In this document: piece after piece, positions 1 to 58,698 of the stretch
Position numbering within the stretch: the first letter of the stretch is position 1
Layout of the letters: each line of letters starts with the position of its first letter
Source of the DNA: Thermodesulfobacteriota bacterium
Lineage (GTDB): Bacteria > Desulfobacterota_D > UBA1144 > Nemesobacterales > JAJCZQ01
Assembly: GCA_965215275.1 (NCBI GenBank)
Contig: OZ244044.1
Location: 832,001-896,000, forward strand
DNA length: 64,000 bases
Reading direction: 5' to 3'
Made by a program: the position numbers and the translations under genes
The notes under the pieces: generated by a model
Told to the model about the DNA's origin: nothing
The model's input: only the letters and a program-made list of their open reading frames with translations
Databases searched by the model: none

Positions 1-439
1 ATCCAAACGTTCCTTCACTTATTACAGACCCTTCAACTTCGGCAGTACTTAACTTACCTTTTTTAATAACTTGCATACGGATCACATCTCCTCCGCTTTG
101 TCTTTTTGACCCTTCCTGCTTTTTTGACCTTCTTTTATAACATCATCAGTTCCACTTCTTATTTTATCCGCTTCATCATTGGTCGATACAACTATCATTG
201 AGGATTTTATTAATCCACCATTTAATGTAAATTATAAAATCATCTCCTAAGTTGAGAACAAATTTAACATTATATTGCTGAATAAGATTAGGAAAGGACA
301 ACCTTGTGTTGTGTGGACTATACAAGTCCTGAAGGATTTGAGAATTTATCAAATTTAAGTAACAGAACTAGTGCCTACTACCGAAACAATAAAGATTGTG
401 TAAAGCAATCTTTATAAATCCCTGAATTTTTTGAAGGGT

Positions 440-817
440 CTATTTTCCTTTGTTATCTACCTCTTCTTCTCCAAACCATTCATTGACTTTGTGTTTGGCC
501 TTGTCTTTCATTTCGTCAGTTATGTATGCAGCAACCGTTGCAACGGCTACAACGATAACCCCGTAATCGTCTATGAGACCACCTGGTAACAAATCTGGAA
601 CGGCATCTACGGGAGAGATGAAGTAACCAAGCGCACCAGTTATGACACTTTTTGCCCAAATTGGTGTTTCAGGAGACTGAAGTGCATAATAAAGTTGAAG
701 TGCCAACTCTACACACTCTCTTCCAGCCTTGATTGCGTATTTTTTAGCCTTACTCCAAAAACCTTCTTTGGAATAGTGCTCCGAATAACCAATTTTAACG
801 TTATCTTTATCGCTCAT
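440..817 (-). CDS. YkvA/DUF1232 family membrane protein, copy 1
   Basis: GALGYFISPVDAVPD..GLIDD motif; likely start MSDKDN at 817. Confidence 0.85.
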   Translation of the reverse strand: MSDKDNVKIGYSEHYSKEGFWSKAKKYAIKAGRECVELALQLYYALQSPETPIWAKSVITGALGYFISPVDAVPDLLPGGLIDDYGVIVVAVATVAAYITDEMKDKAKHKVNEWFGEEEVDNKGK

Positions 818-878
818 AATTATTCTCCACTTTGTAAAATATGGGAATAATATATTTTGAGTAATTAAGAAAATCAAC

Positions 879-993
879 TGAGGATTTCAACAAAGCAATT
901 GCATTAAACCGGGACTTTGCATAAACTTACAATAACCGCGGACTGACTTACGCCGTAACAGGAGTCTATGATAAAGCCATTAAGGATTTCAAC
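879..993 (+). pseudogene. TPR gene fragment (second copy about 1602-1716)
   Basis: Similar to about 5975-6085, sharing aaccgcggactgacttacgccgtaac; contains an in-frame stop. Confidence 0.75.
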
Positions 994-1165
994 TTTACTC
1001 TTTACTGGTAAAGCAGCAACATCAAACTGAAAAATTTCTCTGTATGAATCCTGATGGAAAATGAAAATTTATCAAATTTAAGGAACAAAAACAGTTCCTG
1101 CTACCAAAACAATAAAAATTGTGTCAAGCAATCTTTAGAATTTTTGAAGGGTCTATTTTCCTTTA

Positions 1166-1540
1166 TTATTTTCCTTTATTATTTTCCTCTTCTCCAAACA
1201 ACTCGTTGACTTTGTGTTTGGCTTTGTCTTTCATTTCGTCAGTTATGTATGCAGCAACCGTTGCAACGGCTACAACGATAACCCCGTAATCGTCTATGAG
1301 ACCACCTGGTAACAAATCTGGAACGGCATCTACGGGAGAGATGAAGTAACCAAGCGCACCAGTTATGACACTTTTTGCCCAAATTGGTGTTTCAGGAGAC
1401 TGAAGTGCATAATAAAGTTGAAGTGCCAACTCTACACACTCTCTTCCAGCCTTGATTGCGTATTTTTTAGCCTTACTCCAAAAACCTTCTTTGGAATAGT
1501 GCTCCGAATAACCAATTTTAACGTTATCTTTATCGCTCAT
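1166..1540 (-). CDS. YkvA/DUF1232 family protein, copy 2
   Basis: Nearly identical to copy 1. Confidence 0.85.
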   Translation of the reverse strand: MSDKDNVKIGYSEHYSKEGFWSKAKKYAIKAGRECVELALQLYYALQSPETPIWAKSVITGALGYFISPVDAVPDLLPGGLIDDYGVIVVAVATVAAYITDEMKDKAKHKVNELFGEEENNKGK

Positions 1541-1888
1541 AATTATTCTCCACTTTGTAAAATATGGGAATAATATATTTTGAGTAATTAAGAAAATCAA
1601 CTGAGGATTTCAACAAAGCAATTGCATTAAACCGGGACTTTGCATAAACTTACAATAACCGCGGACTGACTTACGCCGTAACAGGAGTCTATGATAAAGC
1701 CATTAAGGATTTCAACTTTACTCTTTACTGGTAAAGCAGCAACATCAAACTGAAAAATTTCTCTGTATGAATCCTGATGGAAAATGAAAATTTATCAAAT
1801 TTAAGGAACAAAAACAGTTCCTGCTACCAAAACAATAAAAATTGTGTCAAGCAATCTTTAGAATTTTTGAAGGGTCTATTTTCCTTTA

Positions 1889-2341
1889 TTATTTTCCTTT
1901 ATTATTTTCCTCTTCTCCAAACAACTCGTTGACTTTGTGTTTGGCTTTGTCTTTCATTTCGTCAGTTATGCACCCTGCAACCGTTCTAACGGCTAAAACC
2001 AAAACCCCAAAATCATCTGTGAAACCAACAATTGGCGAAAAATCCGGAATGGCATCTAAGGGAAGGATGAAGTAACCAAGTGGACCAGTTATGACAATTT
2101 TTGCCCAATTTGGTGTTTCAGGAGACTGAAGTGCATAATAAAGTTGAAGTGCCAATTCTACACACTTTCTTACAGCTTTGATTGCACATTTTTTTAACTT
2201 ATTCCAAAAACCTTTTTCAGAATAGTGCTTAGAGTAATTTAGCTTACTCCAAAAACTTTTTTCAGAATAGTATTTCGAATAACGTTGAAATGCCCACTTT
2301 ACACATTTTCTTTTAGTAATGTTATCTTCATCGCTCATCAT
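1889..2341 (-). CDS. YkvA/DUF1232 family protein, copy 3 (diverged)
   Basis: GYFILPLDAIPDFSPIVGFTDD; duplicated YSEK.FW motif. Confidence 0.8.
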   Translation of the reverse strand: MMSDEDNITKRKCVKWAFQRYSKYYSEKSFWSKLNYSKHYSEKGFWNKLKKCAIKAVRKCVELALQLYYALQSPETPNWAKIVITGPLGYFILPLDAIPDFSPIVGFTDDFGVLVLAVRTVAGCITDEMKDKAKHKVNELFGEEENNKGK

Positions 2342-2706
2342 TATTCTCCATTTTGTAAAATAATATACTTTTAGTAAGCAAGAAAGGTCAACAGGGGCTT
2401 TGCCTCTGTTAATCCAACTACCTTTTGTATCCAACTATTAAATCTGGATTTTTCCATTCGGTCTTTGTAAGAATTACAGTTAGTTGCATACCTCTTTTGT
2501 TTACAGATAAAGCATACTGCTCTAACAGATTTTTCAGAGTAGAATATTATGAAAGGAATTATATACAAAAATACATTAATCTTTACTTTTGATAGAATAA
2601 GTGCTTTAATAAGAAGTTCAGTGGGTAAAAAATCAACTTACTCAGATTTAACGCTATGAAAAAACCTATAACTCTCAGAAAGCATAAACGCTAAAAACAA
2701 GCAACG

Positions 2707-3568
2707 ATGAAAGGTTCTACCCCCCCCCTACAATCACAGGACGCTCTCAAATAGGGATTACATAAATAAAATCACCTGTGGTGATACTTTAAAACTTATC
2801 CATACTATTGAACCGAAAAGTATCAATCTTATCATAACCAGTCCTCCGTATTTCGGATGCAGAATCTACGGAAATGAAACACTTGGAAGGGAAACTGACC
2901 CCAGAGAATATATAAAAAATATATTAACTTTTACGGATGAATTTAAGCGAGTTTTACATAGTGAAGGCTCATTTTATCTGAACATTGGAGATGTTTATTT
3001 TGGTTCAAAGGGATTTATTAGAAATAAAGGGAAATATGCAAGAAAGACAGACAAACATTATAAAGTTCATAAGATAGTTAAACCTGATGGCAGGTATTTA
3101 CAATACAAACAGCTACTCATGATACCTGAGAGAATCGCCATAGGAATGCAAGAGCAAGGCTGGATATTAAGGAATAAAATAATATGGGAAAAACCCAACC
3201 CCGTACCCAGTTATTCACCTGACAGACGTTACCCTGTTTATGAACATTTCTTTCATTTTGTAAAATCCAGAAAGTATTATTTTGATTTAAAGAAAGCACA
3301 GAAGATTAATCACCATAGGGATGTCATTAGAAATGGAATAGAACCTTTTGGCAGCCATCAAGCCACTTATCCTCTATCTCTTATAAAACCATTCATATAT
3401 ACCACTTCAAAAGAAGGAGATATTGTTCTCGATCCTTTTATGGGAAGCGGTACGACCGCAGTTGCCTGTACAGAGCTTAACAGAAAATTTATAGGGTTTG
3501 AGATCAATCCAGAATTTTGTAAAGAAGCTATGGATAGACTGGAAGAAAATGGAAGATTGTTTTCCTAA
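2707..3568 (+). CDS. N4/N6 DNA methyltransferase (beta class), frameshifted at a C9 tract (2720-2728)
   Basis: The frame of ORF 3119 extends upstream through ITCGD..TSPPYFG and ends with DPFMGSGTT; ATG 2707 joins this frame only if the tract is C8. Confidence 0.85.
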
Positions 3569-3580
3569 TTGGAAATATAG

Positions 3581-4726
3581 ATGCCGTTAATTTCCACTCA
3601 AAAATGTGAGATATTTCAAAATTCCAAAAAAATCGATCTATATTCTTCTTATTTACAATCTATGGCGAGTTTATCCAGATTATTTAGTAATAAGGACGTT
3701 CCTTATTTGCCATATAGAGCAGTTGAAAATATTTTCTGTAAAGCATTTAACGTTGATAATCTTTCCAGAGATGATCTTGCTTACGATGCTAAAGTGGGAA
3801 GTATTGCTTGGGGAATAAAAACCTTCGCTTCTGAATATAAAAAATCACAACAAAAAATATCTGAATTTAATGTTAACAATCAAGAGCTTAAAAAACTTAA
3901 AGGTGAAGAATTAGTTGCTCGTATAGCAGAATTGAGAAATGAAAGAATCATTTTTGCCAATAAAAACTACAAAATCGACAAGGCTTATTATCACTGTGTC
4001 GTGAGGCAGAAAAATGTATTGAAGATTTTTGAAGAACCATACGAGTTTATAGATATTAATAAGATCACAAATATAAGAAGTACCAATCCCAGCATATCTT
4101 TTAAAGATAATAACAATGAATATAGCTTTAATTTTTCTAAAAGTACTCTACTTAAAAAATTCTATACACCAGAAAATACATTAGACATAGATGTAGAAAT
4201 AATTGATTCTCCTTTAGAACTACTAGATGAGATTATTCGTCAGCTATCAGAATTCAGAAAACCCGTACAAGAGAATTTTGTCATATTACCTTTATACTCC
4301 ACTCGTAGTAGAGACCAAAAGACAATTCCAGAGAGAAGTGGTTTAAACCAGTGGAATGCCGGTGGTAGAGAAAGAGACTATGGAGAGGTTTATATTCCCA
4401 TTCCGCAGAACATACATAAAAAATATCCCAATTTCTTCCCCAACAGGAATGTATCTTTTAACTTGATAGTGCCAAGTGGGGAAATATTATCTGCAAAGGT
4501 GTGTCAAGACAATAGCAAGGCATTAATGACAAACCCTAATAATGCTTTAAGTGAATGGATGTTGAGAGATGTGCTGAGGCTACAAGAAGGTGAACTTTTA
4601 ACTTATAAAAAATTATTAACTCTGGGAATAGATAGTATGAAAGTAGTAAAAGTGGACAAAGAAAACTATAAAATTAATTTTTCCAAGATAGGAAGTTATG
4701 AAGAGTTTATAAACCATGAGCGTTAG
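3581..4726 (+). CDS. Restriction endonuclease, NgoFVII-like family
   Basis: SGLNQWNAGGR..EVYIPIP and KALMTNPN motifs; follows the methyltransferase. Confidence 0.75.
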   Translation: MPLISTQKCEIFQNSKKIDLYSSYLQSMASLSRLFSNKDVPYLPYRAVENIFCKAFNVDNLSRDDLAYDAKVGSIAWGIKTFASEYKKSQQKISEFNVNNQELKKLKGEELVARIAELRNERIIFANKNYKIDKAYYHCVVRQKNVLKIFEEPYEFIDINKITNIRSTNPSISFKDNNNEYSFNFSKSTLLKKFYTPENTLDIDVEIIDSPLELLDEIIRQLSEFRKPVQENFVILPLYSTRSRDQKTIPERSGLNQWNAGGRERDYGEVYIPIPQNIHKKYPNFFPNRNVSFNLIVPSGEILSAKVCQDNSKALMTNPNNALSEWMLRDVLRLQEGELLTYKKLLTLGIDSMKVVKVDKENYKINFSKIGSYEEFINHER

Positions 4727-4879
4727 TTAACTCCATTAATTTTGTTTCTGAAAAAATTCCCTGTACGAATCCTGATGGAGAATGAAAATTTATCAATTTT
4801 AAGGAACAAAGACAATTCCTGTTACCGAAACAATAAAGATTGTGTCAAGCAATATAAATCCCTGAATTTTTTGAAGAGT

Positions 4880-5215
4880 CTATTCTCCTTTATTATCTTC
4901 CTTTTCTTCTCCAAACCACTCGTTGACTTTGTCTTTGGCTTTGTTTTTCATTTCGTCAGTTATGTATTTAGCAACCGTTCTACGGGCTAAAACGAGAACC
5001 ACATAATCATCTACGAAGCCAATAATTGGTAAAAAATCGGGAATGACATCTAAGGGAAGAATGAAGTAACCAAGTGCACCATATATAACATTTTTTGCCC
5101 AAATTGGTGTTTCAGGAGACTGAAGTGCATAATAAAGTTGAAGTGCCAATTCTACACACTCTCTTCCAGCCTTGATTGCGTATTTTTTAGCAACATTATC
5201 TCCATCACTCATCAT
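4880..5215 (-). CDS. YkvA/DUF1232 family protein, copy 4
   Basis: GALGYFILPLDVIPDFLPIIGFVDD. Confidence 0.85.
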   Translation of the reverse strand: MMSDGDNVAKKYAIKAGRECVELALQLYYALQSPETPIWAKNVIYGALGYFILPLDVIPDFLPIIGFVDDYVVLVLARRTVAKYITDEMKNKAKDKVNEWFGEEKEDNKGE

Positions 5216-13131: not shown

Positions 13132-16941
<3,810 letters not shown>

Positions 16942-27093: not shown

Positions 27094-27582
27094 ATGGAAA
27101 AAAAGAATATGAAAAAAAATAAACAACTCAATAAAAAAAGTAAGTTAAATTCTATTGATGTTGCTAACTATTTTTTAACTAAAATAGATGAAACTTCTGG
27201 GGATTTAATCTCTAACTTAAAGCTACAAAAATTAGTTTACTATGCACAAGGATTCAATTTAGCAATGTTCGGTAAACCTTTATTTCACGATACTATTGAA
27301 GCGTGGATGTACGGACCTGTAGTTCCTGTTTTATATGATGAATATAAAAAAAATGGTGATGGTGCGTTACCCTTTCCAAATAATGTAAACCTTGATAAGT
27401 ATAGCTCTCAAACAAAAGAATTATTAGATGAAGTTTATGATGTATATGGTCAGTATTCTGCCTGGGTTCTTAGCGGTTTTACTCATAACGAACCTCCATA
27501 TAAAAATGCCCGGAAAAGAAAAGACAAGACCATTGTTCACAAAGAATTAAAAAACTACTTTATCACACAATTACACGACTAA
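27094..27582 (+). CDS. Panacea (DUF4065/SocA/GepA) antitoxin
   Basis: NLKLQKLVYYAQG, IEAWMYGPV, THNEPP. Confidence 0.9.
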   Translation: MEKKNMKKNKQLNKKSKLNSIDVANYFLTKIDETSGDLISNLKLQKLVYYAQGFNLAMFGKPLFHDTIEAWMYGPVVPVLYDEYKKNGDGALPFPNNVNLDKYSSQTKELLDEVYDVYGQYSAWVLSGFTHNEPPYKNARKRKDKTIVHKELKNYFITQLHD

Positions 27583-34318: not shown

Positions 34319-34432
34319 TTCACGCTAAGCTGCACTTTAACAAGACGGTTCTATTGAGAATCCGTGTTTGTGGTCACATAAATAATCTGAACAATCATTA
34401 TCGTATTATTAGATTATTTGCAGGAAATCATT

Positions 34433-34936
34433 ATGGCTAAATACAAAGAACTGTCTAAAGATCTATCTGATATAGCAGAGTATTTTATATACCTGTCCAA
34501 CAAGGATGACAGGTATATGACCAGCTTGAAACTGCAAAAGTTAGTTTACTATGCTCAAGCGTGGAACCTGGTATTTAACAATAAGCGATTATTCAAGGAC
34601 ACCATAGAAGCGTGGATACACGGCCCTGCAGTTTATAGCTTATGGAAAGAATATAAAGAGTTCGGATTTGAAAAAATAAGGGTGGATATATCAGATGATT
34701 TTAACTTCTCTGAAAAGACCAAAGAAATACTTGACGAAGTCTGGGACATTTATGGTGGTTTTGACTCAAGGTATTTAGAAGAACTTGTTCATTATGAAAG
34801 ACCCTGGCAGGATGCAAGAGGAAAATTTGACTGTAACGAAACTTCACATGCAAGAATTACTGCTGTATCAATGAAAAAGTATTATCGTAACAGATACAAT
34901 ACAGCAAAGTCAGAAAGGCAGGACCTGAATCGTTAG
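34433..34936 (+). CDS. Panacea (DUF4065) antitoxin without an evident toxin
   Basis: LKLQKLVYYAQAW, IEAWIHGP, H.ERPWQDAR. Confidence 0.9.
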   Translation: MAKYKELSKDLSDIAEYFIYLSNKDDRYMTSLKLQKLVYYAQAWNLVFNNKRLFKDTIEAWIHGPAVYSLWKEYKEFGFEKIRVDISDDFNFSEKTKEILDEVWDIYGGFDSRYLEELVHYERPWQDARGKFDCNETSHARITAVSMKKYYRNRYNTAKSERQDLNR

Positions 34937-35143: not shown

Positions 35144-37154
35144 ATGAATATGAACATCTTATTTAGAATAATCCCCCCCCCCATCTAAGTTAATAATATC
35201 CTTTTTCTTTCTTCTGTGCCTTGTATCCATTGAGGCATATGGCCAGCTCAATAACTGTGACACCAGTACGACCGCTTTCAATGATCCCTTATACGGCTGT
35301 CAGTGGCATCTGAAAAATACAGGACAGCTCGGGACTGTAACTGCCTCTGGAGAAGATATAAACATAGAAGGGGTATGGGATGATAATGTATTTGGTGCCG
35401 GAATTAACGTGGCGGTGGTAGATGATGGTATGCAAACGGGTCATGAGGACCTTGCTGATAATGTAAATACCAGCCTGAACCACGATTATTCAGGGAACAA
35501 TGACGTATACGACCCTTCAAAAACTCGTGGAACACGTGTATCGGGAGTTATAGCAGGAGCGGGAGATAACAGCCTTGGAGTAAGGGGCACAGCACCGCAG
35601 GCAGGCATCTATAGTTATAATTTAGCTGGTAACTTGAATAACGCTAACGCAAAGGATGCCATGATCCGTAATAGAGATACAACGGCTGTATCCATCAACA
35701 ACTGGGGACCGAATGACCTGCCTCTTCTCAGGGAGACTTCATCAGAGTGGGAGGAAGGAGTGGGAACGGGTATAAGTGAAGGGTTTGGTGGTAAAGGGGT
35801 ATTTTACGTGTGGGCTGCTGGAGATGGCAGCCGCGACCAGGCTAATTTTGATGAGTATTCCAACTACTACGCTGTAACCACCGTATGTTCGGTAGATGGA
35901 GAAGGAAGTAATAGTTCTTTTTCAGAAGAGGGAGTAAATCTTTGGGTATGTGCTCCAGGTGAACGTATAACAACTACTGATAATAACGATAGATATGTTT
36001 TTGATGCAAGAGGGACAGCATATTCAGCAGCGCAGGTTTCAGGTGTGGCGGCACTGATGAGAGAAGTAAACGGTAACCTTAGCTGGAGAGACCTTAAGCT
36101 GATACTTGCAGCTTCAGCTCGTAAGAACGACGCTTCTGACACGGGCTGGGAGACAGGAGCACATAAATATGGTTCTGATTCAGAAAGTTATAATTATAAT
36201 CCCAAATATGGTTTTGGTGTGGTAGATGCTGAAGCAGCAGCAGGACTTGCTGAAAGCTGGACCAATGTTCCAATGATGAGAACTCAGACCGCTTCCTCTG
36301 GGACTATTGATATGGCAATCCCCGACCACAACAATGGAGTAGACGGAGAAGCTACTGCCATACTGACAGTACCAGATACTTCTCTTTCTTTTACAGAGTT
36401 TATAGAGATAGAGCTTAATTTCTCTCACACATACTTTCCGGACCTGAACATACAGATAACCTCTCCTGACGGTACTGTGTCGCAACTTAGTAATAGATAT
36501 ATAGCAGACGCTTTATCATATGTAGTTAGTAATACACTCACCAGGAGCGACTTTGCGTACACAAACAAAACTCATCGTTTTGGTTCAGCCAGACACCTTG
36601 GAGAAGGTCCTGCCGGAGAATGGACTTTGAGAATATCTGACACTGCTAATGGAGATTCAGGGACTTTACACTCATGGAGCATTAAAGCCTATGGACATAG
36701 TACGGCACCAAGCTTTGACGGTGAGACGATAGATGATCAGGAGTATTTTACGGGTACAGCAGTAACAGAAACGCTGCCTGCTGCAACAGGAGGGGATGGA
36801 ACATTAACATACAGTTTAACACCTGCATTACCAACTGGATTGAATTTTAACGCATCTACCCGAGAGATAAGCGGAACACCCACCAGTGTATCATCGTCTG
36901 ATACTTACATGTATACGGTAACAGATGATGATGGGGATATGGCTGAGTTGAGTTTCACGATCAGGGTAGTGAATCGTCCTGCTCCGTTACCACCAAGACA
37001 AACACCAGGTACTGATGCTGGCGGTGGAGGAGGATGTACGATCTCCGATCAGAACGAAGCTGTTCCTGATATGCTCACAGCATTGGCATCTCTGATGCTG
37101 ATACCCTTATCAGTATTGATCAGAAGGAAGATAAGGTCTCAGATAAGTAATTAA
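35144..37154 (+). CDS. Kexin-like S8 subtilase homolog with P-domain, Ig-like domain and C-terminal anchor; frameshifted at C10 (35173-35182); catalytic residues altered
   Basis: DPLYGCQWHL, VVDDG, P-domain G.WTL...D....G.L.SW, GGGGGC plus TM; the signal peptide is in frame only with C9. Confidence 0.8.
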
Positions 37155-44179: not shown

Positions 44180-44644
44180 TTATCTTCTGTTCTTATCAGT
44201 CTCAAAGTGGCTTTTAGTTATTGCCACTATATAAACTGTTGCTAATTTAGTAAAATAAAATATTCTTTCTGTTTTACCTATTATTAACTCTTCTAATTGA
44301 ACAGATTTGTCCAAACCTTTAAACAATGGAGCATAATCGTTTATCCCTTTCACTTTCTTATTTTTGTTACTTATAAATTCATGAAATGGGTTATCTGAAA
44401 TATACTCTGTTGCTTGTATTTGATTGATTATGTTTGTTATTCTATTTGTTTCCTTTTCAGTAAAGTGGTCTATCTGACTTATTTTGTCATTATGGAATTT
44501 ATCATTATCAACTTGCCAGTATCTAATCTCATTAGGTTTGTTGGTAGGGTAAGCAACAGTTCTAATAATAGATTTTCTATTATTAGCATGAATCTCTTTA
44601 GATAGACTAATTCTGTGTTTTTTTATTACAGATTTTTTAACGAT
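44180..44644 (-). pseudogene. Uncalled ~150-codon open frame (probable Panacea toxin) lacking a canonical start
   Basis: Stop-free frame IVKKSVIKKHRIS..YAPLFKGLDKSVQLEELIIGKTERIFYF..VYIVAITKSHFETDKNRR*. Confidence 0.6.
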
Positions 44645-45140
44645 TTAGATTCTGCCTTTCTATCTTTGCTGTATTGTATCTATTACGATAATACTCTTTC
44701 ATTGATACAGCAGTAATTCTTGCATCTGAAACTTCTTTACAGTCAAGTTTTCCTCTTGCATCCTGCCAAGGTCTTTCGTAATGAGTAAGTTCTTCTAAAT
44801 ACCTTGCGTCAAAACCACCATAAACATCCCAAACTTCGTCAAGTATTTCCTTGGTCTTTTCAGAGAAGTTAAAATTGTTTACTACATTTACTTCTATTCG
44901 TCCAAATTTAAACTTATTGTATTTTTTCCACAAAGCATATACAACTGGGCCGTGTATCCACGCTTCTATAGGGTCTTTGAATAACCGTTTATGGTTAAAT
45001 ACCAGATTCCACGCTTGAGCATAATAAACTAACTTTTGCAGTTTTAAGTTAGTCATATACTTGTCATCCTTGTTGGATAGGTATATAAAGTACTCCGCTA
45101 TATCAGATAATTCTTTAGATAATTTTTTAGATTTAGCCAT
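44637..45140 (-). CDS. Panacea (DUF4065) antitoxin
   Basis: Close paralog of 34433-34936. Confidence 0.9.
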   Translation of the reverse strand: MAKSKKLSKELSDIAEYFIYLSNKDDKYMTNLKLQKLVYYAQAWNLVFNHKRLFKDPIEAWIHGPVVYALWKKYNKFKFGRIEVNVVNNFNFSEKTKEILDEVWDVYGGFDARYLEELTHYERPWQDARGKLDCKEVSDARITAVSMKEYYRNRYNTAKIERQNLNR

Positions 45141-49108: not shown

Positions 49109-49947
49109 TCTTAAGTGGACTGTCAGGTTCCGGTAAAAGTACGGCAATAAAGTTCCTGGAGGATATTGGCTACTTCTGCATTGATAATCTTCCAACTCCC
49201 TTAACGACCAAGTTCATAGACTTCTGCAAAGACTCTGATGCTGATTTTACAAAAATAGCACTGGGGATCGATATCAGGATTCAGGACAGAGAAACCTTAA
49301 AGGACTTCCCTAAACTCATTCAACTGATCAAACGGGAGATCGCAAACGTCAAGATCATGTTTCTGGAATCAACGACCGAAGTACTGATAAAAAGGTATAA
49401 AGAGACAAGAAGAAAGCATCCACTGTCCAACGATGGAGATATAGTTGAAAACGTGGAAAAAGAAAGAAAACTGCTTGCGAGAATCAAAGAGGCTTCCAAC
49501 TACTTAATAGACACTTCCGAGTATAACGTTTATGAACTGCGAGATCACATTAACTCTATATTCCTCAATATAGATACGGACAGAGTATCACTTAGCATAA
49601 CGTCCTTTGGCTTCAAGCACGGCTATCCCATAGACGCCGATATAGTCATGGATGCACGGTTCTTACCTAACCCTTACTTTATTGATTCCTTAAAGGACCT
49701 GAACGGTAACGATCCAGAGATAAAGGAGTTCGTGCTGTCACGCAGTGAAACCGGAGATTTTATTGAAAAAATATCCGACTTACTTACGTTTTTAATTCCA
49801 AAGTATAAAAACGTGGGAAAATCTTATGTAAATTTAGCGATCGGTTGCACCGGGGGTAAACACAGGTCCGTTGTAATTGCAAATGTGCTTGCAGAAAGCT
49901 TCAAACATATTGAACCTCTGGTAAAACACAGAGATATTAGTAAATAG
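49096..49947 (+). CDS. rapZ: RNase adapter RapZ/YvcJ
   Basis: GLSGSGKS, IDNLP, SFGFKHG, GCTGGKHRSV. Confidence 0.92.
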   Translation: MEILILSGLSGSGKSTAIKFLEDIGYFCIDNLPTPLTTKFIDFCKDSDADFTKIALGIDIRIQDRETLKDFPKLIQLIKREIANVKIMFLESTTEVLIKRYKETRRKHPLSNDGDIVENVEKERKLLARIKEASNYLIDTSEYNVYELRDHINSIFLNIDTDRVSLSITSFGFKHGYPIDADIVMDARFLPNPYFIDSLKDLNGNDPEIKEFVLSRSETGDFIEKISDLLTFLIPKYKNVGKSYVNLAIGCTGGKHRSVVIANVLAESFKHIEPLVKHRDISK

Positions 49948-50099
49948 GGAATTTTCCTTTTTAGCTGACATACTCCACTTTACTCTTTTTTTTCTTCTTT
50001 GTTATCTTCGTCAATTTCTTCGTCATAAGATCCTGGTTCAAAACAGAAAAACCAACTTTATAGTCACACTGCAGTCCAGAACTTGCTCCTCGTCCCTTA

Positions 50100-50392
50100 A
50101 AGTCATGTTAAAATTGTAGAGTTAGAACTAAAAGTGTATTACAGGAAACTAATATTCCTCTGCTTAAATGGTTATTAGCAGTGTATTTAATAACTACTAA
50201 CTTAAAGGGAGTGCAAATTAGAAGGGGATTTACAGGTAACACAGAAGACAAGCCTGGTTCTTGAATCATGGAATAAGAAAATCATTAAGCAACCAGTCAG
50301 ATACAAAGACGTTAGAACTTATTGAGATTGATTAGACTTGTATGGGCGGTTTAGAAAAGAATAAACACAAATGCGAGGAGTTAATGAGCTGA
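50100..50392 (+). pseudogene. Deleted IS1595-family transposase
   Basis: ETNIPLLKWLLAVYL..NLKG, DLQVTQKT/AWFLNHGIR and IEID*TCMGGLEKNKH, joined to the C-terminus. Confidence 0.85.
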
Positions 50393-50432
50393 AAAGGTTG
50401 ACTAATCATTCATGGTTTGATATAAGTTTATT

Positions 50433-51026
50433 ATGGAACGGAAGGGTCTTAAATGTATAATAGATAGTTTGTTAACTGTTTTTATATTTATATACCTTGT
50501 GCTTGGTATATGTGTTTTTGGTATAGCGACTTATTATAATTATTATGAGGAATTAGAAAAAAATTTAGTTGCGTTTGTATTATTAGCAACGTCAATAGTC
50601 GCTGCTGCATTTTTATTTATCAGAATATATATAGATAACCAATTAAGTATAAAGGAGAAGGAAATGTTGAAAGAATATTCAGACAAGGTTGAAGAAGTTA
50701 AAAAGGATATTACTGAAAGATTGACTTTTCAGTTGTCTTCTCAGTTGTCTTCTCAGTCGGAAGATATGAACAAAAAACTTGCTTCTCAATCGGAAGATAT
50801 GAACAAAAAATTTGCTTCTCAATTGGAAGATATGAACAAAAAACTTGTTTCTCAATCGGAAGATATGAACAAAAAATTTGCTTCTCAATTGGAAGATATG
50901 AACAAAAAACTTGTTTCTCAATCGGAAGATATGAACAAAAAATTTGTTTCTCAATCGGAAGATATAAACGAATTGATTAGAGTTTTCAATGATTTTATTA
51001 AGAGTAAAAGAGAAAATAGCAGTTAG
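50433..51026 (+). CDS. Two-TM membrane protein with an 11-aa repeat coiled coil
   Basis: SQ(S/L)EDMNKK(L/F)(A/V) about six times (33-bp repeats, about 50751-50965). Confidence 0.7.
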   Translation: MERKGLKCIIDSLLTVFIFIYLVLGICVFGIATYYNYYEELEKNLVAFVLLATSIVAAAFLFIRIYIDNQLSIKEKEMLKEYSDKVEEVKKDITERLTFQLSSQLSSQSEDMNKKLASQSEDMNKKFASQLEDMNKKLVSQSEDMNKKFASQLEDMNKKLVSQSEDMNKKFVSQSEDINELIRVFNDFIKSKRENSS

Positions 51027-51215
51027 TAAACAAGGCTAATAAAAACCCAGTAATTATCCTGTTACCTTTTCTCTGATAATTATCAGAGAAGTCTGTATCT
51101 ACTCATCTATTTTGTATATTTATATAGAAGGTAATGATGTTCAAAACCAAAATGCTCATCTCGAAAGAGCAGAATAAATATAGGTAATTACCCTGTTTAG
51201 CTGACATACCCCAAT

Positions 51216-51425
51216 CTACTCTTCTTTTTCTCCTTTGTTATACTCGTCAATTTCTTCGTCATAAAACCTTGGTTCAAAATCCGTTTTACCCATCAGGATC
51301 TTAACAACATCATCAAATACTATTTCATTCATTTCAGGTACTTTGCCTTGCTCTTTATACCTTTCAAATTTACTTTTCTTTGACATTTTGTTGGGATTGC
51401 CAGAAGGATTGATTTTATCTTTCAT
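51216..51425 (-). CDS. Small ORF next to an IS1595-like end
   Basis: FDDVVKIL motif; its 3' part is duplicated at about 49980-50043. Confidence 0.5.
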   Translation of the reverse strand: MKDKINPSGNPNKMSKKSKFERYKEQGKVPEMNEIVFDDVVKILMGKTDFEPRFYDEEIDEYNKGEKEE

Positions 51426-51457
51426 TTCTTTAATTATTTATTCAATAAATAAAACCA

Positions 51458-52408
51458 TTATGTTTTCTTGTCATTAACCATATGTACTAAACCCCTTTGA
51501 CCTTTTTCCAAACATATCTGCAGAACTTGTGTTGTGAAGACTGAATATTTGATTGACCACGGACCTTCTTGTGAATATTTTATGTTCGTTAATGGAACTT
51601 CTTGTAACAATTTAACTGTTTCCGGTCTCATATTAACTAATAAAATATTATTATCAGGAAGTAAATCAGCTATTTTAATATCTTCTATTCTTTCATCAAT
51701 AGCTAAAATACAGTCCCTAATGGTGTTACATTTTGTACTGTTATTGCAATATTTATTCAGTAATTTTTTATATGCAGGTGGAATATATATTACAAACGGT
51801 CCAGAGAGGTTTTCCATCTCTTCCTTCATATTTGATATGTCTTTTATAATACCATCTGGAGTCTTAGCAGAATCTGACCAGTTCTTTTCACCTTCAAATT
51901 TAACCTCACTTCTGTGTGGATGATTTATATAGCTGTAAAATTTTTTGCCTGCATATTCACAAGTCTTGTTGGTAAATAACATCTCTTCTAAGGACTCAAG
52001 TACCTTTTTTGCGGCTCTTTCCGTCTTGGTAGTATCTAATACTAATCCCCTATTTCTGTTAGTTTCCAATTCTCTGGTATTCAAAGAATAAAGTTCTTCA
52101 TCAGTAGGCAGTGGGATGGTGTCCATGTCCCCTAAATTATAAACCAATCCAGCATTCTTAAGATCGTTTATCCCACTTTCTTCGGTTTCCACATCCCTGA
52201 TAACCTTGTCTAATTTTATCCATTCATCCTTTCTTAAATTTGCATTACCAACTTGCTCAACATAGTAGTTCCTAGTATCACTTCTATCTCCACTTCCTTT
52301 ATACACGCTAATATACGCTTTACAATCATCCCCAATCCAAGGACGTAGTTTGTGTAAATATTTAGATTGTATTAACTTATTAACATCTGCAGCTGTTATA
52401 TTCATCAT
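51458..52408 (-). CDS. HK97-fold phage major capsid/encapsulin-like protein, apparently internally shortened
   Basis: LRKDEW..LD, GINDL...GLVYNLG, LDTT..ERAA..V...LEEMLF, YSYINHP.R, GPFVIYIP, NNILLV.M, GLVHM. Confidence 0.75.
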   Translation of the reverse strand: MMNITAADVNKLIQSKYLHKLRPWIGDDCKAYISVYKGSGDRSDTRNYYVEQVGNANLRKDEWIKLDKVIRDVETEESGINDLKNAGLVYNLGDMDTIPLPTDEELYSLNTRELETNRNRGLVLDTTKTERAAKKVLESLEEMLFTNKTCEYAGKKFYSYINHPHRSEVKFEGEKNWSDSAKTPDGIIKDISNMKEEMENLSGPFVIYIPPAYKKLLNKYCNNSTKCNTIRDCILAIDERIEDIKIADLLPDNNILLVNMRPETVKLLQEVPLTNIKYSQEGPWSIKYSVFTTQVLQICLEKGQRGLVHMVNDKKT

Positions 52409-52450
52409 TTTCTTTCTCCTTATCCTTTCTTACATTTTATTTTATTTGTA

Positions 52451-52708
52451 TCAAACATCTAGCTTCAGAAAAGGCATAGTCTTATGACTAGCTTCCTTTG
52501 TATTTACACTTTCGCTAAAATTAAAGTAATACCTATTTTGCTTCAGGCAACCCCTTCTTACGAGATTTTTGTTAATTGATATAAATTGTCTTTCATCTCC
52601 CCACATTAACCTTTCAAAGTGTTTCCTGCATCTCTCTTCCGTATAAAAGTTCTCTGTAAACTCATAAAAACTAATTCTTTGACGGGCTCTTTTTGATAAT
52701 CTACCCAC
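52451..52708 (-). pseudogene. IS1595-family transposase N-terminal fragment
   Basis: ISFYEF...F.TEE.CR.HFE...W, truncated before the Zn ribbon; adjacent to the IR. Confidence 0.75.
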
Positions 52709-52807
52709 AATAGTGTAATCTCTTTTTTTATAAGTAACTACAATACATACGCTACTTAGGGGTTATCAACTAAAAAGGATAATTACCAACAAACAAGAGA
52801 AGAAAAA

Positions 52808-56072: not shown

Positions 56073-56434
56073 ATCTTCGTTAATTTTCTACCTTCCCTCT
56101 GATATGAACTGGATTACAGTAAAAATGATCAGGATCTTTACGGTACTGGTCGTACATCGGCTGGAAGGAATTCAAGGTTATGGAATTGTAACGGTTTTTG
56201 ATAATTATACAACAGGATATTAAACCTGTTTTTACCAGACCACACACTTGCGATGAAGATCAGTTCCAGACATAAAGTCCCAATATACAACCCTTTATAT
56301 GGGAATTATGTATAAAAAAAAGAAGGGGACTATATACTTTAGTACCCAAAATGAATAATAAATGCCTTACGGCATTTGATATCTTTATATATTAGTATAT
56401 GGATTAAAAAAGTATTTTAAAGGAGAAAATGTAA

Positions 56435-57001
56435 ATGAGTAATGCTAATAAACATAACAAACTTCCTGGTTCGGATTATAATAGTATAATAAAATCTCTT
56501 ATTCGTGCTACTGAGTCAATTCCAGAGTATAATGAATATACAAAAGAAGCGGAGAAAATTTTAGAAAATCCTATACCTATTGGATATGATGTAAAGGAAG
56601 GGTGGAGGCTACATAACTATTTTCAGGATAAAAGAGTTGTTGAAAAAGTGTATGGGATGAATTTTTTAGAACAGTACTATATGAGTGAAGAAAATGGAAC
56701 TTGGATGCCAGGTATGCTGAAAAGAATTGAAGTTATAAAAGATGAATGTCCTGTTATTTATAAAAACCTTAAAGAAGATGGGTATTTATCAGGTTTTATG
56801 TATCTTATTTATTATATTGCTGTTTTTGGAAAGATTAAAAAATCTAAAAGAAATATTAGAAAATCTAAAAGGGATAAGTTTTATAATATATTTGCGACTT
56901 ATGTACATAAGTCTGTAAATGGCGATAAAGAAGATGTAAATATGGAGATAGAAAATCTTATGAATATAATGATGGAGGATGGGTATGGTGGATTAGAGTA
57001 G
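56435..57001 (+). CDS. Hypothetical protein (cassette 1)
   Basis: 188-aa AT-rich ORF with aggag ribosome-binding site; fills the space between repeats 1 and 2. Confidence 0.7.
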   Translation: MSNANKHNKLPGSDYNSIIKSLIRATESIPEYNEYTKEAEKILENPIPIGYDVKEGWRLHNYFQDKRVVEKVYGMNFLEQYYMSEENGTWMPGMLKRIEVIKDECPVIYKNLKEDGYLSGFMYLIYYIAVFGKIKKSKRNIRKSKRDKFYNIFATYVHKSVNGDKEDVNMEIENLMNIMMEDGYGGLE

Positions 57002-57245
57002 GAGATGAGTTATATAATAAAGGAAGGGGACTATATACTTTAGTACCCAAGATAGTTTAATCTTTTGATCTACTTAACTTTTTTCTTTTTTCGTTTTCTT
57101 TTAATTTTCTTTGAGTTCTATGTTTTTTAGATAGTTCTATTTGGGGAGCGAACATTATTTTTATTGCTTCATCAAATGTTGCATCTAACGGGGGAATTAT
57201 CTTTTGCTTTCTACCCATTGTAAAAGCCTTTTTTATTCATACTTT

Positions 57246-57992
57246 TTAAACTTTAATTTTTTTATCTAAAAACGGACTTTGGTATACTCCGCCATTTTCT
57301 CTAATACTTGAAATAAACCAATCCATAACATATTTTACCTCTTTAACCACAGGGTCGATACCTTTTTTCTCAATAAAGTTCTCTCCTACATCTACACCAA
57401 GCACCGGACATCTGCCTACAATTTCATTATCTTCGTTAATATAGGTAAATATCTTATATCCTTTATGTTTACCGTGATATTGTATATCTCTTATATCTTC
57501 TAACTCTTCAACATAAAACTCTTTTGTAGCATCCATGCCATACTTATCTTTAAACTCTTTCTTCACATCTGCCATAGATGGATTATCAAACTCATTTACA
57601 ACATCTAAATTAGTGTTATTCATATATGCCTCCCTAAGATATTTTTTTGCTTTTTTACTACGCTCTATATTATTTTCTTTATCTAATCTTAATATCTCGC
57701 TTTTAAAATATTTCCATTCACTGATCATTTTTTTAACCATATCTTCTCCATCTTGTTTAGATATAGTAGTATTTAGATGGGGATAATTTTCATGTTCAGC
57801 CCGCCTATGTCCACCTTTACCTCGATCATCATATATTATAAACCCCACTGCTTTAAGTCTTTTAATATACTCCCTTACTTTCATTATGGCACTTCCCTCA
57901 TATATCTGCTCAACTAATGTTGGACCACGCTCATAAATCTGTTGAATTCTTGTTAGTTTATTATTTTCTTCCATATTCTTTCCTTTTATCAA
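57246..57992 (-). CDS. Fused HicA-like toxin / HicB-like antitoxin
   Basis: MKVREYIKRLKAVGF....GKGGHR..H then IVGRCPVLG..EVKYVMDWFI...RENG...P. Confidence 0.6.
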   Translation of the reverse strand: MIKGKNMEENNKLTRIQQIYERGPTLVEQIYEGSAIMKVREYIKRLKAVGFIIYDDRGKGGHRRAEHENYPHLNTTISKQDGEDMVKKMISEWKYFKSEILRLDKENNIERSKKAKKYLREAYMNNTNLDVVNEFDNPSMADVKKEFKDKYGMDATKEFYVEELEDIRDIQYHGKHKGYKIFTYINEDNEIVGRCPVLGVDVGENFIEKKGIDPVVKEVKYVMDWFISSIRENGGVYQSPFLDKKIKV

Positions 57993-58023
57993 TTTTCTCT
58001 ATATGATTCAATAACCTTTATCC

Positions 58024-58476
58024 TTATATATAATAGAACAAATCAAAATCAATTAATTTACCAATTATTTTATAAACATTTAATTGCTCTGGATTTTTAT
58101 AATCATACTCGTTTATTTCTTTTTTTAATGTTGCTAAATCCGAGTCTATAACCCACTCATCAACCCGTTCATATTTTTGATGTATATAACTCTCTGTTTC
58201 TCTGTAATTCTCTTTTAATACTTTATACACTATTTTATTAGAACCTAACGGGTCAAATGCAGATTGAATTCTTCTTTCTGGATTTGCTGATATACCTACT
58301 TTAAACCAATCTTTTAACTTTACATTATCGGAATTAACAGCAATATATACATATTTCTTATCTACATAGGATTTACCCTGATCCGTTCTTTCTGGTGGGT
58401 CTGTATGAAACCCTATTTGATCAAAGTTAAACATATTTGAAACATATTTGAAACATATTTGAAACCTCTTTTTCAA
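58024..58476 (-). CDS. GIY-YIG / T5orf172-like nuclease
   Basis: YVYI..FKVGIS.NPERRI..E..IH...EW; start uncertain. Confidence 0.7.
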   Translation of the reverse strand: MKKRFQICFKYVSNMFNFDQIGFHTDPPERTDQGKSYVDKKYVYIAVNSDNVKLKDWFKVGISANPERRIQSAFDPLGSNKIVYKVLKENYRETESYIHQKYERVDEWVIDSDLATLKKEINEYDYKNPEQLNVYKIIGKLIDFDLFYYI

Positions 58477-58698
58477 TCCTTTCTTTAACTAAAGGGGACT
58501 ATATACTTTAGTACCCAAAAAGAATAATCCCTGCATCCTGACGTGATCATTATCATTGTAAGAAAGGAAAGAAAAAGACGTTATACCTGACACTAAAGCA
58601 GAAACAGAAGAAGACGGGACGACAATTCCTGATCAGATGGTGTACACGACAGGAAAACCAATAACGCTGCATGAGGAAATGGCAGTGAGAGAAGTATC

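Follow-up and report, generated by a model that had tools for sequence, protein, structure and literature searches.

Capsid proteins of the HK97 fold, and derivatives of them, have been described outside phage genomes in several settings. Three features are described as conserved in HK97 proteins, the E-loop among them (PMC11664910); capsid assembly and stability depend on the contacts that it makes within and between capsomers (10.1101/626804). Ccm, encoded by SaPIbov5 of Staphylococcus aureus, is a capsid homolog that keeps its E-loop, builds the pentamers of small capsids and resides in a self-packaging satellite; it suppresses the helper phage, and alone it forms no capsids (PMC8569155). 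Virion assembly is also blocked by Tab (PMC10884400). Family 4 (A-domain) encapsulins are truncated, non-shell HK97 derivatives of cellular genomes, about 100 aa long and reduced to the A-domain, which are found mostly in enzyme operons (PMC8346489, PMC11664910). Host domestication of a phage capsid is the route proposed for encapsulins (PMC8987985). Prophage genes retained under purifying selection are already known, capsid genes being, according to one review, usually among those that are lost (PMC13492144, PMC8987985), and so are IS derivatives that carry passenger genes, e.g. the non-autonomous MICs and transporter IS, which combine IS ends and a passenger with a reduced transposase (PMC3129680).

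The capsid gene discussed here, P0001, lies in a window of 64,000 nucleotides (the whole stretch of DNA that was analysed) from a Thermodesulfobacteriota bacterium. It belongs to the same family, DUF6260 (PF19774), as capsids of the tailed phages MaInes and StAshley of Brevundimonas and Hardycor1 of Halorubrum. Unlike these, it lacks the E-loop, has a short N-terminus and belongs to no functional head module; all that is present of one are broken pieces of the decoration and tail-tube genes next to its paralog. Like Ccm, it is a capsid homolog of (predicted) HK97 fold outside a phage genome, but it sits in no phage-inducible chromosomal island: apart from IS remnants, the 2.84-kb insertion has only the capsid gene and one for a 197-aa protein. 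It resembles Family 4 encapsulins in being a truncated, probably non-shell HK97 derivative in a cellular genome, but it has both A and P domains and no enzyme partner. We rejected assignment to Family 4, given its 316 aa, P domain and spine helix as against an A-domain of about 100 aa, and also assignment to Family 1 (NF041155 18.2 versus 100, PF04454 19.8 versus 24.3). Family 1 encapsulins are nevertheless the nearest solved folds, with weak HMM similarity, from which P0001 differs by its phage ancestry, the missing E-loop and the lack of adjacent cargo. The element around the gene has the IS ends, passenger and reduced transposase of MICs and transporter IS, but it is single and old, its likely target duplication has decayed, and the passenger that it carries codes for a phage structural protein. 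P0001 is most likely kept by the host as a folded capsid subunit that does not build a shell.

Table 1. Features of the insertion that carries P0001 (window positions; positions preceded by C1 lie elsewhere in the same genome).
Feature	Position	Strand	Basis or remark
Likely decayed 8-bp target duplication, left copy	49939..49946		5/8 identical to 52788-52795
Outer IS end	49947..50043	+	Overlaps rapZ stop codon
IS1595 transposase pseudogene, decayed (stops, frameshifts)	50019..50383	+	40-63% to C1:1002122-1003075
197-aa passenger gene	50433..51026	+	N-terminal hydrophobic segments, 33-nt tandem repeats
Inner inverted repeat	51183..51212	+	Within ~97-nt copy of outer end, 83/97 identical to 49947-50043
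69-aa small ORF adjoining other IS end	51216..51425	-	77% over 56 aa to C1:34100-34267
P0001, phage major capsid protein gene of family DUF6260	51458..52408	-	316 aa, predicted HK97 fold, 36-residue in-frame deletion
Deletion junction, D94-I98, in place of 41-residue segment	52115..52129	-	Alignment, intact model, contigs of other studies
Upstream stretch common to paralog locus	52409..52455	-	blastn homology reaches 52455
IS1595-family transposase N-terminal remnant, 85 aa	52451..52708	-	33% over 72 columns, E 8e-12
Terminal inverted repeat, transposase-start end	52758..52787	-	Sequence comparison of ends
Likely decayed 8-bp target duplication, right copy	52788..52795		Pairs with 49939-49946; empty site

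The original prediction described a 316-aa reading frame as a phage major-capsid homolog, and both the frame and the assignment are borne out. P0001 passes the PF19774 (DUF6260) model with 33.2 bits against a curated cut-off of 26.6, it matches PHROG head proteins, and it can be aligned with uncultured phage members of DUF6260, to which it is 35-43% identical. In the Atlas, the clusters nearest to it consist of major capsid proteins, and a genome scan with P0001 yielded 19 loci at 30-43% identity. A Foldseek comparison had been proposed for the fold, which by prediction is of the HK97 type and not a different one. The predicted model of P0001 contains A and P domains and the spine helix, and Foldseek matches it to encapsulins with E 4.5e-17, and also to capsids; its pLDDT of 90 is not counted as evidence of folding, as the model was built on the alignment of intact homologs. 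The wider structural search, for which only the model of an intact homolog was used, finds Family 1 encapsulins as the closest solved structures (Z 25.4, rmsd 2.4 over 276 residues) and HK97 itself at Z 16.2 (rmsd 4.1 over 240 residues).

Judged from their sequences, neither P0001 nor its paralog looks like a working capsid gene. P0001 keeps 68 of the 111 family-conserved positions (43 are lost) and the paralog 72, compared with 102-111 in phage homologs; the two copies also have 5-6 cysteines each versus a viral median of 0. A promoter scan gave 19 sites against 14.3 +/- 4.0 expected by chance, and the terminator scan that accompanied it gave none. No RNA set containing the sequence was listed among public runs, a result that has no bearing on expression.

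The E-loop region had been predicted to be missing, its length being given as roughly 35 residues. According to the alignment and the intact-homolog model, 36 residues are indeed absent. G93 and P99 are 5 residues apart in P0001 and 41 apart in all 67 distinct viral homologs of the alignment (80 loci). No other sequence among the 147 with a full core (153 were examined) is short in this way, and the full segment is present in all 119 further homologs. The missing stretch covers a long hairpin of the intact model, with strands 110-116 and 139-145, that is seen in that model only and is absent from the model of P0001; on the basis of the predicted fold, we identify it as the probable E-loop. A comparison of P0001 with its paralog shows an 87-nt gap at the deletion; the paralog itself is 7 residues short in this loop, P0001 36. 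The loop may have been lost in one step or in two. Both copies have also lost about 13 N-terminal residues, and the paralog a hairpin tip, all of these losses being in frame.

That the deletion is an artefact of assembly is hardly credible. It is true that the protein collection has P0001 from a single contig, but a contig of 1252 nt from another study spans the junction without any difference, and contigs from two further studies agree on it (29 letters on the shorter side), so that this explanation is largely refuted. A metagenome scan with P0001 (6 loci, 24-36% identity) revealed no second deleted form. The deletion is a singleton that allows no dating on its branch, and its date is not fixed because the P0001 contigs from other studies show no differences.

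The proposal that the gene is carried as cargo of an insertion sequence holds, as there are IS1595 ends, with transposase fragments on either side of the capsid gene. The extent of the element is another matter. The original prediction placed its ends at matched inverted repeats, 51183-51212 and 52759-52787. The match is real (23 of 30 bases between 51183-51212 and 52758-52787, including 19 of the first 22), but 51183 is not the outer end and belongs to an inner copy. In all eight relatives compared, rapZ and the PTS IIA gene are only 0-11 nt apart; hence 49947-52787 is one compound insertion. Its site is empty in a genome of the same genus. The whole insertion is 2.84 kb long, and the IS1595 element in which the capsid gene lies is internally deleted. 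By eye, the flanks of its outer ends agree at 5/8 positions and those of the originally proposed inner pair at 4/8, and the outer flanks are likely an old target duplication. The transposase to which we compared the 85-aa remnant is a 312-aa ORF of the same genome that passes NF033547. Intact IS1595 transposases are present elsewhere in this genome, as are relatives of the 69-aa ORF, and the cassette as a whole is there in single copy. The 197-aa passenger is one of 6 paralogs in the genome, which differ in the number of their repeats. The surrounding cargo had been thought to be mostly defence-related. This is not so inside the element, where the capsid gene is accompanied by IS1595 remnants and the 197-aa membrane/coiled-coil gene: PADLOC recognised no defence gene within the insertion, and for the 197-aa product it gave only weak partial ZorA matches, over the coiled-coil.

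Nor is P0001 a lone capsid homolog, as it first appeared to be. A paralog of 339 aa, 47% identical to it and scoring 31.4 bits with PF19774, is encoded 35 kb away, outside the window (G000:C1:919085-920104). The locus G000:C1:918797-920440 is a prophage relic with a broken decoration gene, the intact capsid paralog and a tail-tube fragment. The decoration gene, upstream of the paralog, is truncated and frameshifted, and the tail-tube remnant, 100 nt downstream, has 2 stops in 62 codons; the locus keeps the gene order of an intact phage (decoration-capsid-tail) with the middle cut out. The position of this second copy between broken decoration and tail genes implies that the capsid gene came from a decayed prophage. 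Since about 47 nt upstream of the P0001 start are common to the paralog locus, the IS would have captured the gene from the prophage relic. This common stretch contains a ribosome-binding region rich in purines as well as the final bases of the phage decoration gene (a codon-level match, by eye). The order of events would probably be a prophage relic, capture by IS1595 and insertion at rapZ-manX. An IS1595-like end was seen by eye near C1:918521.

The remainder of a head module is missing. No terminase, portal, protease or encapsulin cargo gene had been noticed nearby, and for the first three this can be extended to the whole genome, where tblastn and HMM searches found none of them. With 1035 phage ORFs as tblastn queries (E<1e-4), the only structural matches were both copies of the capsid gene and a fragment of the decoration gene. 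The terminase HMM had no match in the genome and matched 5/14 controls; the portal and DUF2213 HMMs had none either, but with these the controls were silent too. No cargo gene lies beside either copy, the neighbours of P0001 being IS1595 remnants. The capsid gene was not found in any of the 40 relatives, and a single one of 119 other genomes of the class has a match, with an intact DUF6260 head module. A quick version of the tree, with 55 rows, joins the two copies, on long branches, at 99; we name no donor because their composition differs from that of the other rows.

Are these copies still under selection? The dN/dS between them, a measure that the original prediction had proposed to apply across homologs, is 0.55 (support range about 0.4-0.8) and significantly below 1 (LRT 9.3). 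Neither copy has a stop, in 316 and 339 codons, where neutral simulation expects 8-11 per copy, and in this they contrast with the adjacent tail-tube remnant (Fisher p 0.024). Uniqueness combined with neutral evolution had been named as fatal to the idea; the deletion is unique, but the value of 0.55 and the lack of stops speak against neutrality. Sites conserved in phages are identical between the copies in 67/98 cases and variable sites in 40/103 (p 4e-5), whereas neutral simulation gives 29-43% identity in every site class. On the branch of the deleted copy, 11/70 conserved sites have changed (neutral 38-49%), compared with 12/27 variable sites. The two branches carry 31-34 and 27-30 changes, i.e. 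their rates are equal.

On the other hand, the copies are not under the strong purifying selection of phage capsids. Their identity by codon position is 0.74/0.71/0.68, as against about 0.75/0.83/0.48 in phage pairs (8 sampled from 30 of similar nucleotide identity), and the dN/dS of phage capsids is 0.010-0.039, a rough range given saturated dS. Five core-gene comparisons with relatives gave 0.11-0.22. Among the paralog pairs of this genome (129 fitted, 95 usable, at most six per family) the median is 0.45; 34 of the 95 usable pairs reach at least 0.55, and at least 0.4 is reached by 53 of them and by 16/32 families, duplicated accessory genes often combining a dN/dS of 0.4-1.0 with open frames. 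As 0.55 is common among the duplicates of the genome, the value gives no pointer to defence. As far as their sequences tell, the copies are no working capsid genes, but they are no neutral pseudogenes either. Tandem paralogs of a gene of about 145 aa at window positions 440-5215 show dN/dS between copies of 0.58-1.37.

Several suggestions can be made regarding what P0001 does. For retention by the host count the protected core sites, the open frames and the broken state of the neighbouring phage genes. If the protein is made in the host, selection would hold its folded core and not the shell contacts, with in-frame erosion at the periphery. As E-loop contacts are needed for assembly, the prediction for P0001 is that it closes no shell. 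Our best, though tentative, candidate for the benefit to the host is that P0001 poisons the heads of related phages. It might join the growing capsomer via its A and P domains and take up the E-loop of a neighbour; having none to donate, it could then stall the lattice. Ccm and Tab are precedents for the logic of such head interference by analogy, and not evidence that P0001 works this way. Intact DUF6260 head genes in one of the 119 other class genomes are a point in its favour. A dominant-negative role had been put forward in the original prediction, and nothing supports it directly: no CRISPR spacer gave a link to a phage, the element has no recognisable defence gene, and the constraint does not exceed that on many other duplicates of the genome. 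A poison that co-assembles should need a close target, and the suggestion is weakened because, among the homologs searched, phage capsids reach at most 43% identity. Many invariant residues are gone from P0001, and the deletion has been seen once and has not spread (0/40 relatives, 1/119 class genomes, the latter with an intact module); both count against a decoy. A stronger version, in which the E-loop deletion itself was selected and created a chain-terminating, dominant-negative HK97 capsid as an anti-phage defence in two stages (the losses of 7 and 36 residues), appears distinctly unlikely to us.

Two readings are close rivals of head poisoning. It is possible, although doubtful, that the relic is folded, builds no shell and is kept for a reason other than defence, the loss of the E-loop being tolerated. 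It may have some weak structural or binding role, comparable to Family 4 encapsulins, truncated HK97 proteins which form dimers and not shells (PMC11664910); alternatively, selection may act only against a misfolded or truncated product of an expressed gene. The same constraint data (dN/dS, no stops, protected conserved sites) fit this too, as do a dN/dS typical of the duplicates of this genome, the loss of invariant residues and the number of cysteines. However, neither copy is adjoined by a partner enzyme or cargo gene, and a gene without benefit would be expected to be lost or broken by now, like its phage neighbours. A rather unlikely alternative is that the deletion was a recent knockout, so that P0001 is a pseudogene in waiting and any function is carried by the paralog. 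The deletion is a singleton, undated as the contigs from other studies are identical, and the zero stops confine a neutral phase to roughly the final quarter or third of the branch, which would leave room for such an event. But this loop is also 7 residues shorter in the paralog, which is just as degenerate at conserved sites, the branch rates are equal, and the first hit would more probably be a stop or frameshift than a loop-sized deletion in frame. Very improbable, finally, is an encapsulin-like shell built by the two copies, alone or jointly. Family 1 encapsulins being the closest solved structures to the intact homolog (Z 25.4) agrees with it, but the NF041155 score is 18 where the cut-off is 100, the E-loop, from which both copies have lost residues, is described as universally conserved in encapsulin Families 1-3 (PMC11664910), and what flanks the copies are remnants of phage and IS in place of cargo genes.

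Whatever the benefit is, P0001, as a probably folded, non-shell subunit kept by its host, represents an unusual but real variant of the domestication of prophage genes; the weight of the finding is limited, as P0001 is confined to one species. The literature searched, in which subscription journals are thinly covered, yielded neither a natural capsid without E-loop nor a host-encoded capsid decoy, and DUF6260 appeared there in one unrelated paper. With A and P domains, no E-loop and measurable selection, P0001 is a natural test of a loop-less HK97 subunit, and the two copies show a phage capsid gene midway in its domestication by a host. If P0001 does block head assembly, a host-encoded capsid decoy would join the known defences that act at this step.

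The genome has two CRISPR arrays with different 36-nt repeats, at G000:C1:1988465-1990023 joined to 1-4150 and at 1443417-1444760; none of their 106 spacers has a match longer than 18 bases in the phage loci compared. SocA/Panacea-type antitoxin genes occur at window positions 27094-27582, 34418-34936 and 44637-45140, with a fourth at C1:939530, and the window also contains methyltransferases, outside the element. At 13132-16887 there is a DNA gyrase B with a frame of 1251 aa, in which about 440 extra N-terminal residues consist of TPR repeats. A long subtilase-type family has 62 paralogs in the 2-Mb genome, one of them at window positions 35409-37154. At 56323-58528, a 37-nt repeat resembling an IS end occurs three times around three low-GC ORFs, which have weak HicA-like and T5orf172-like matches.
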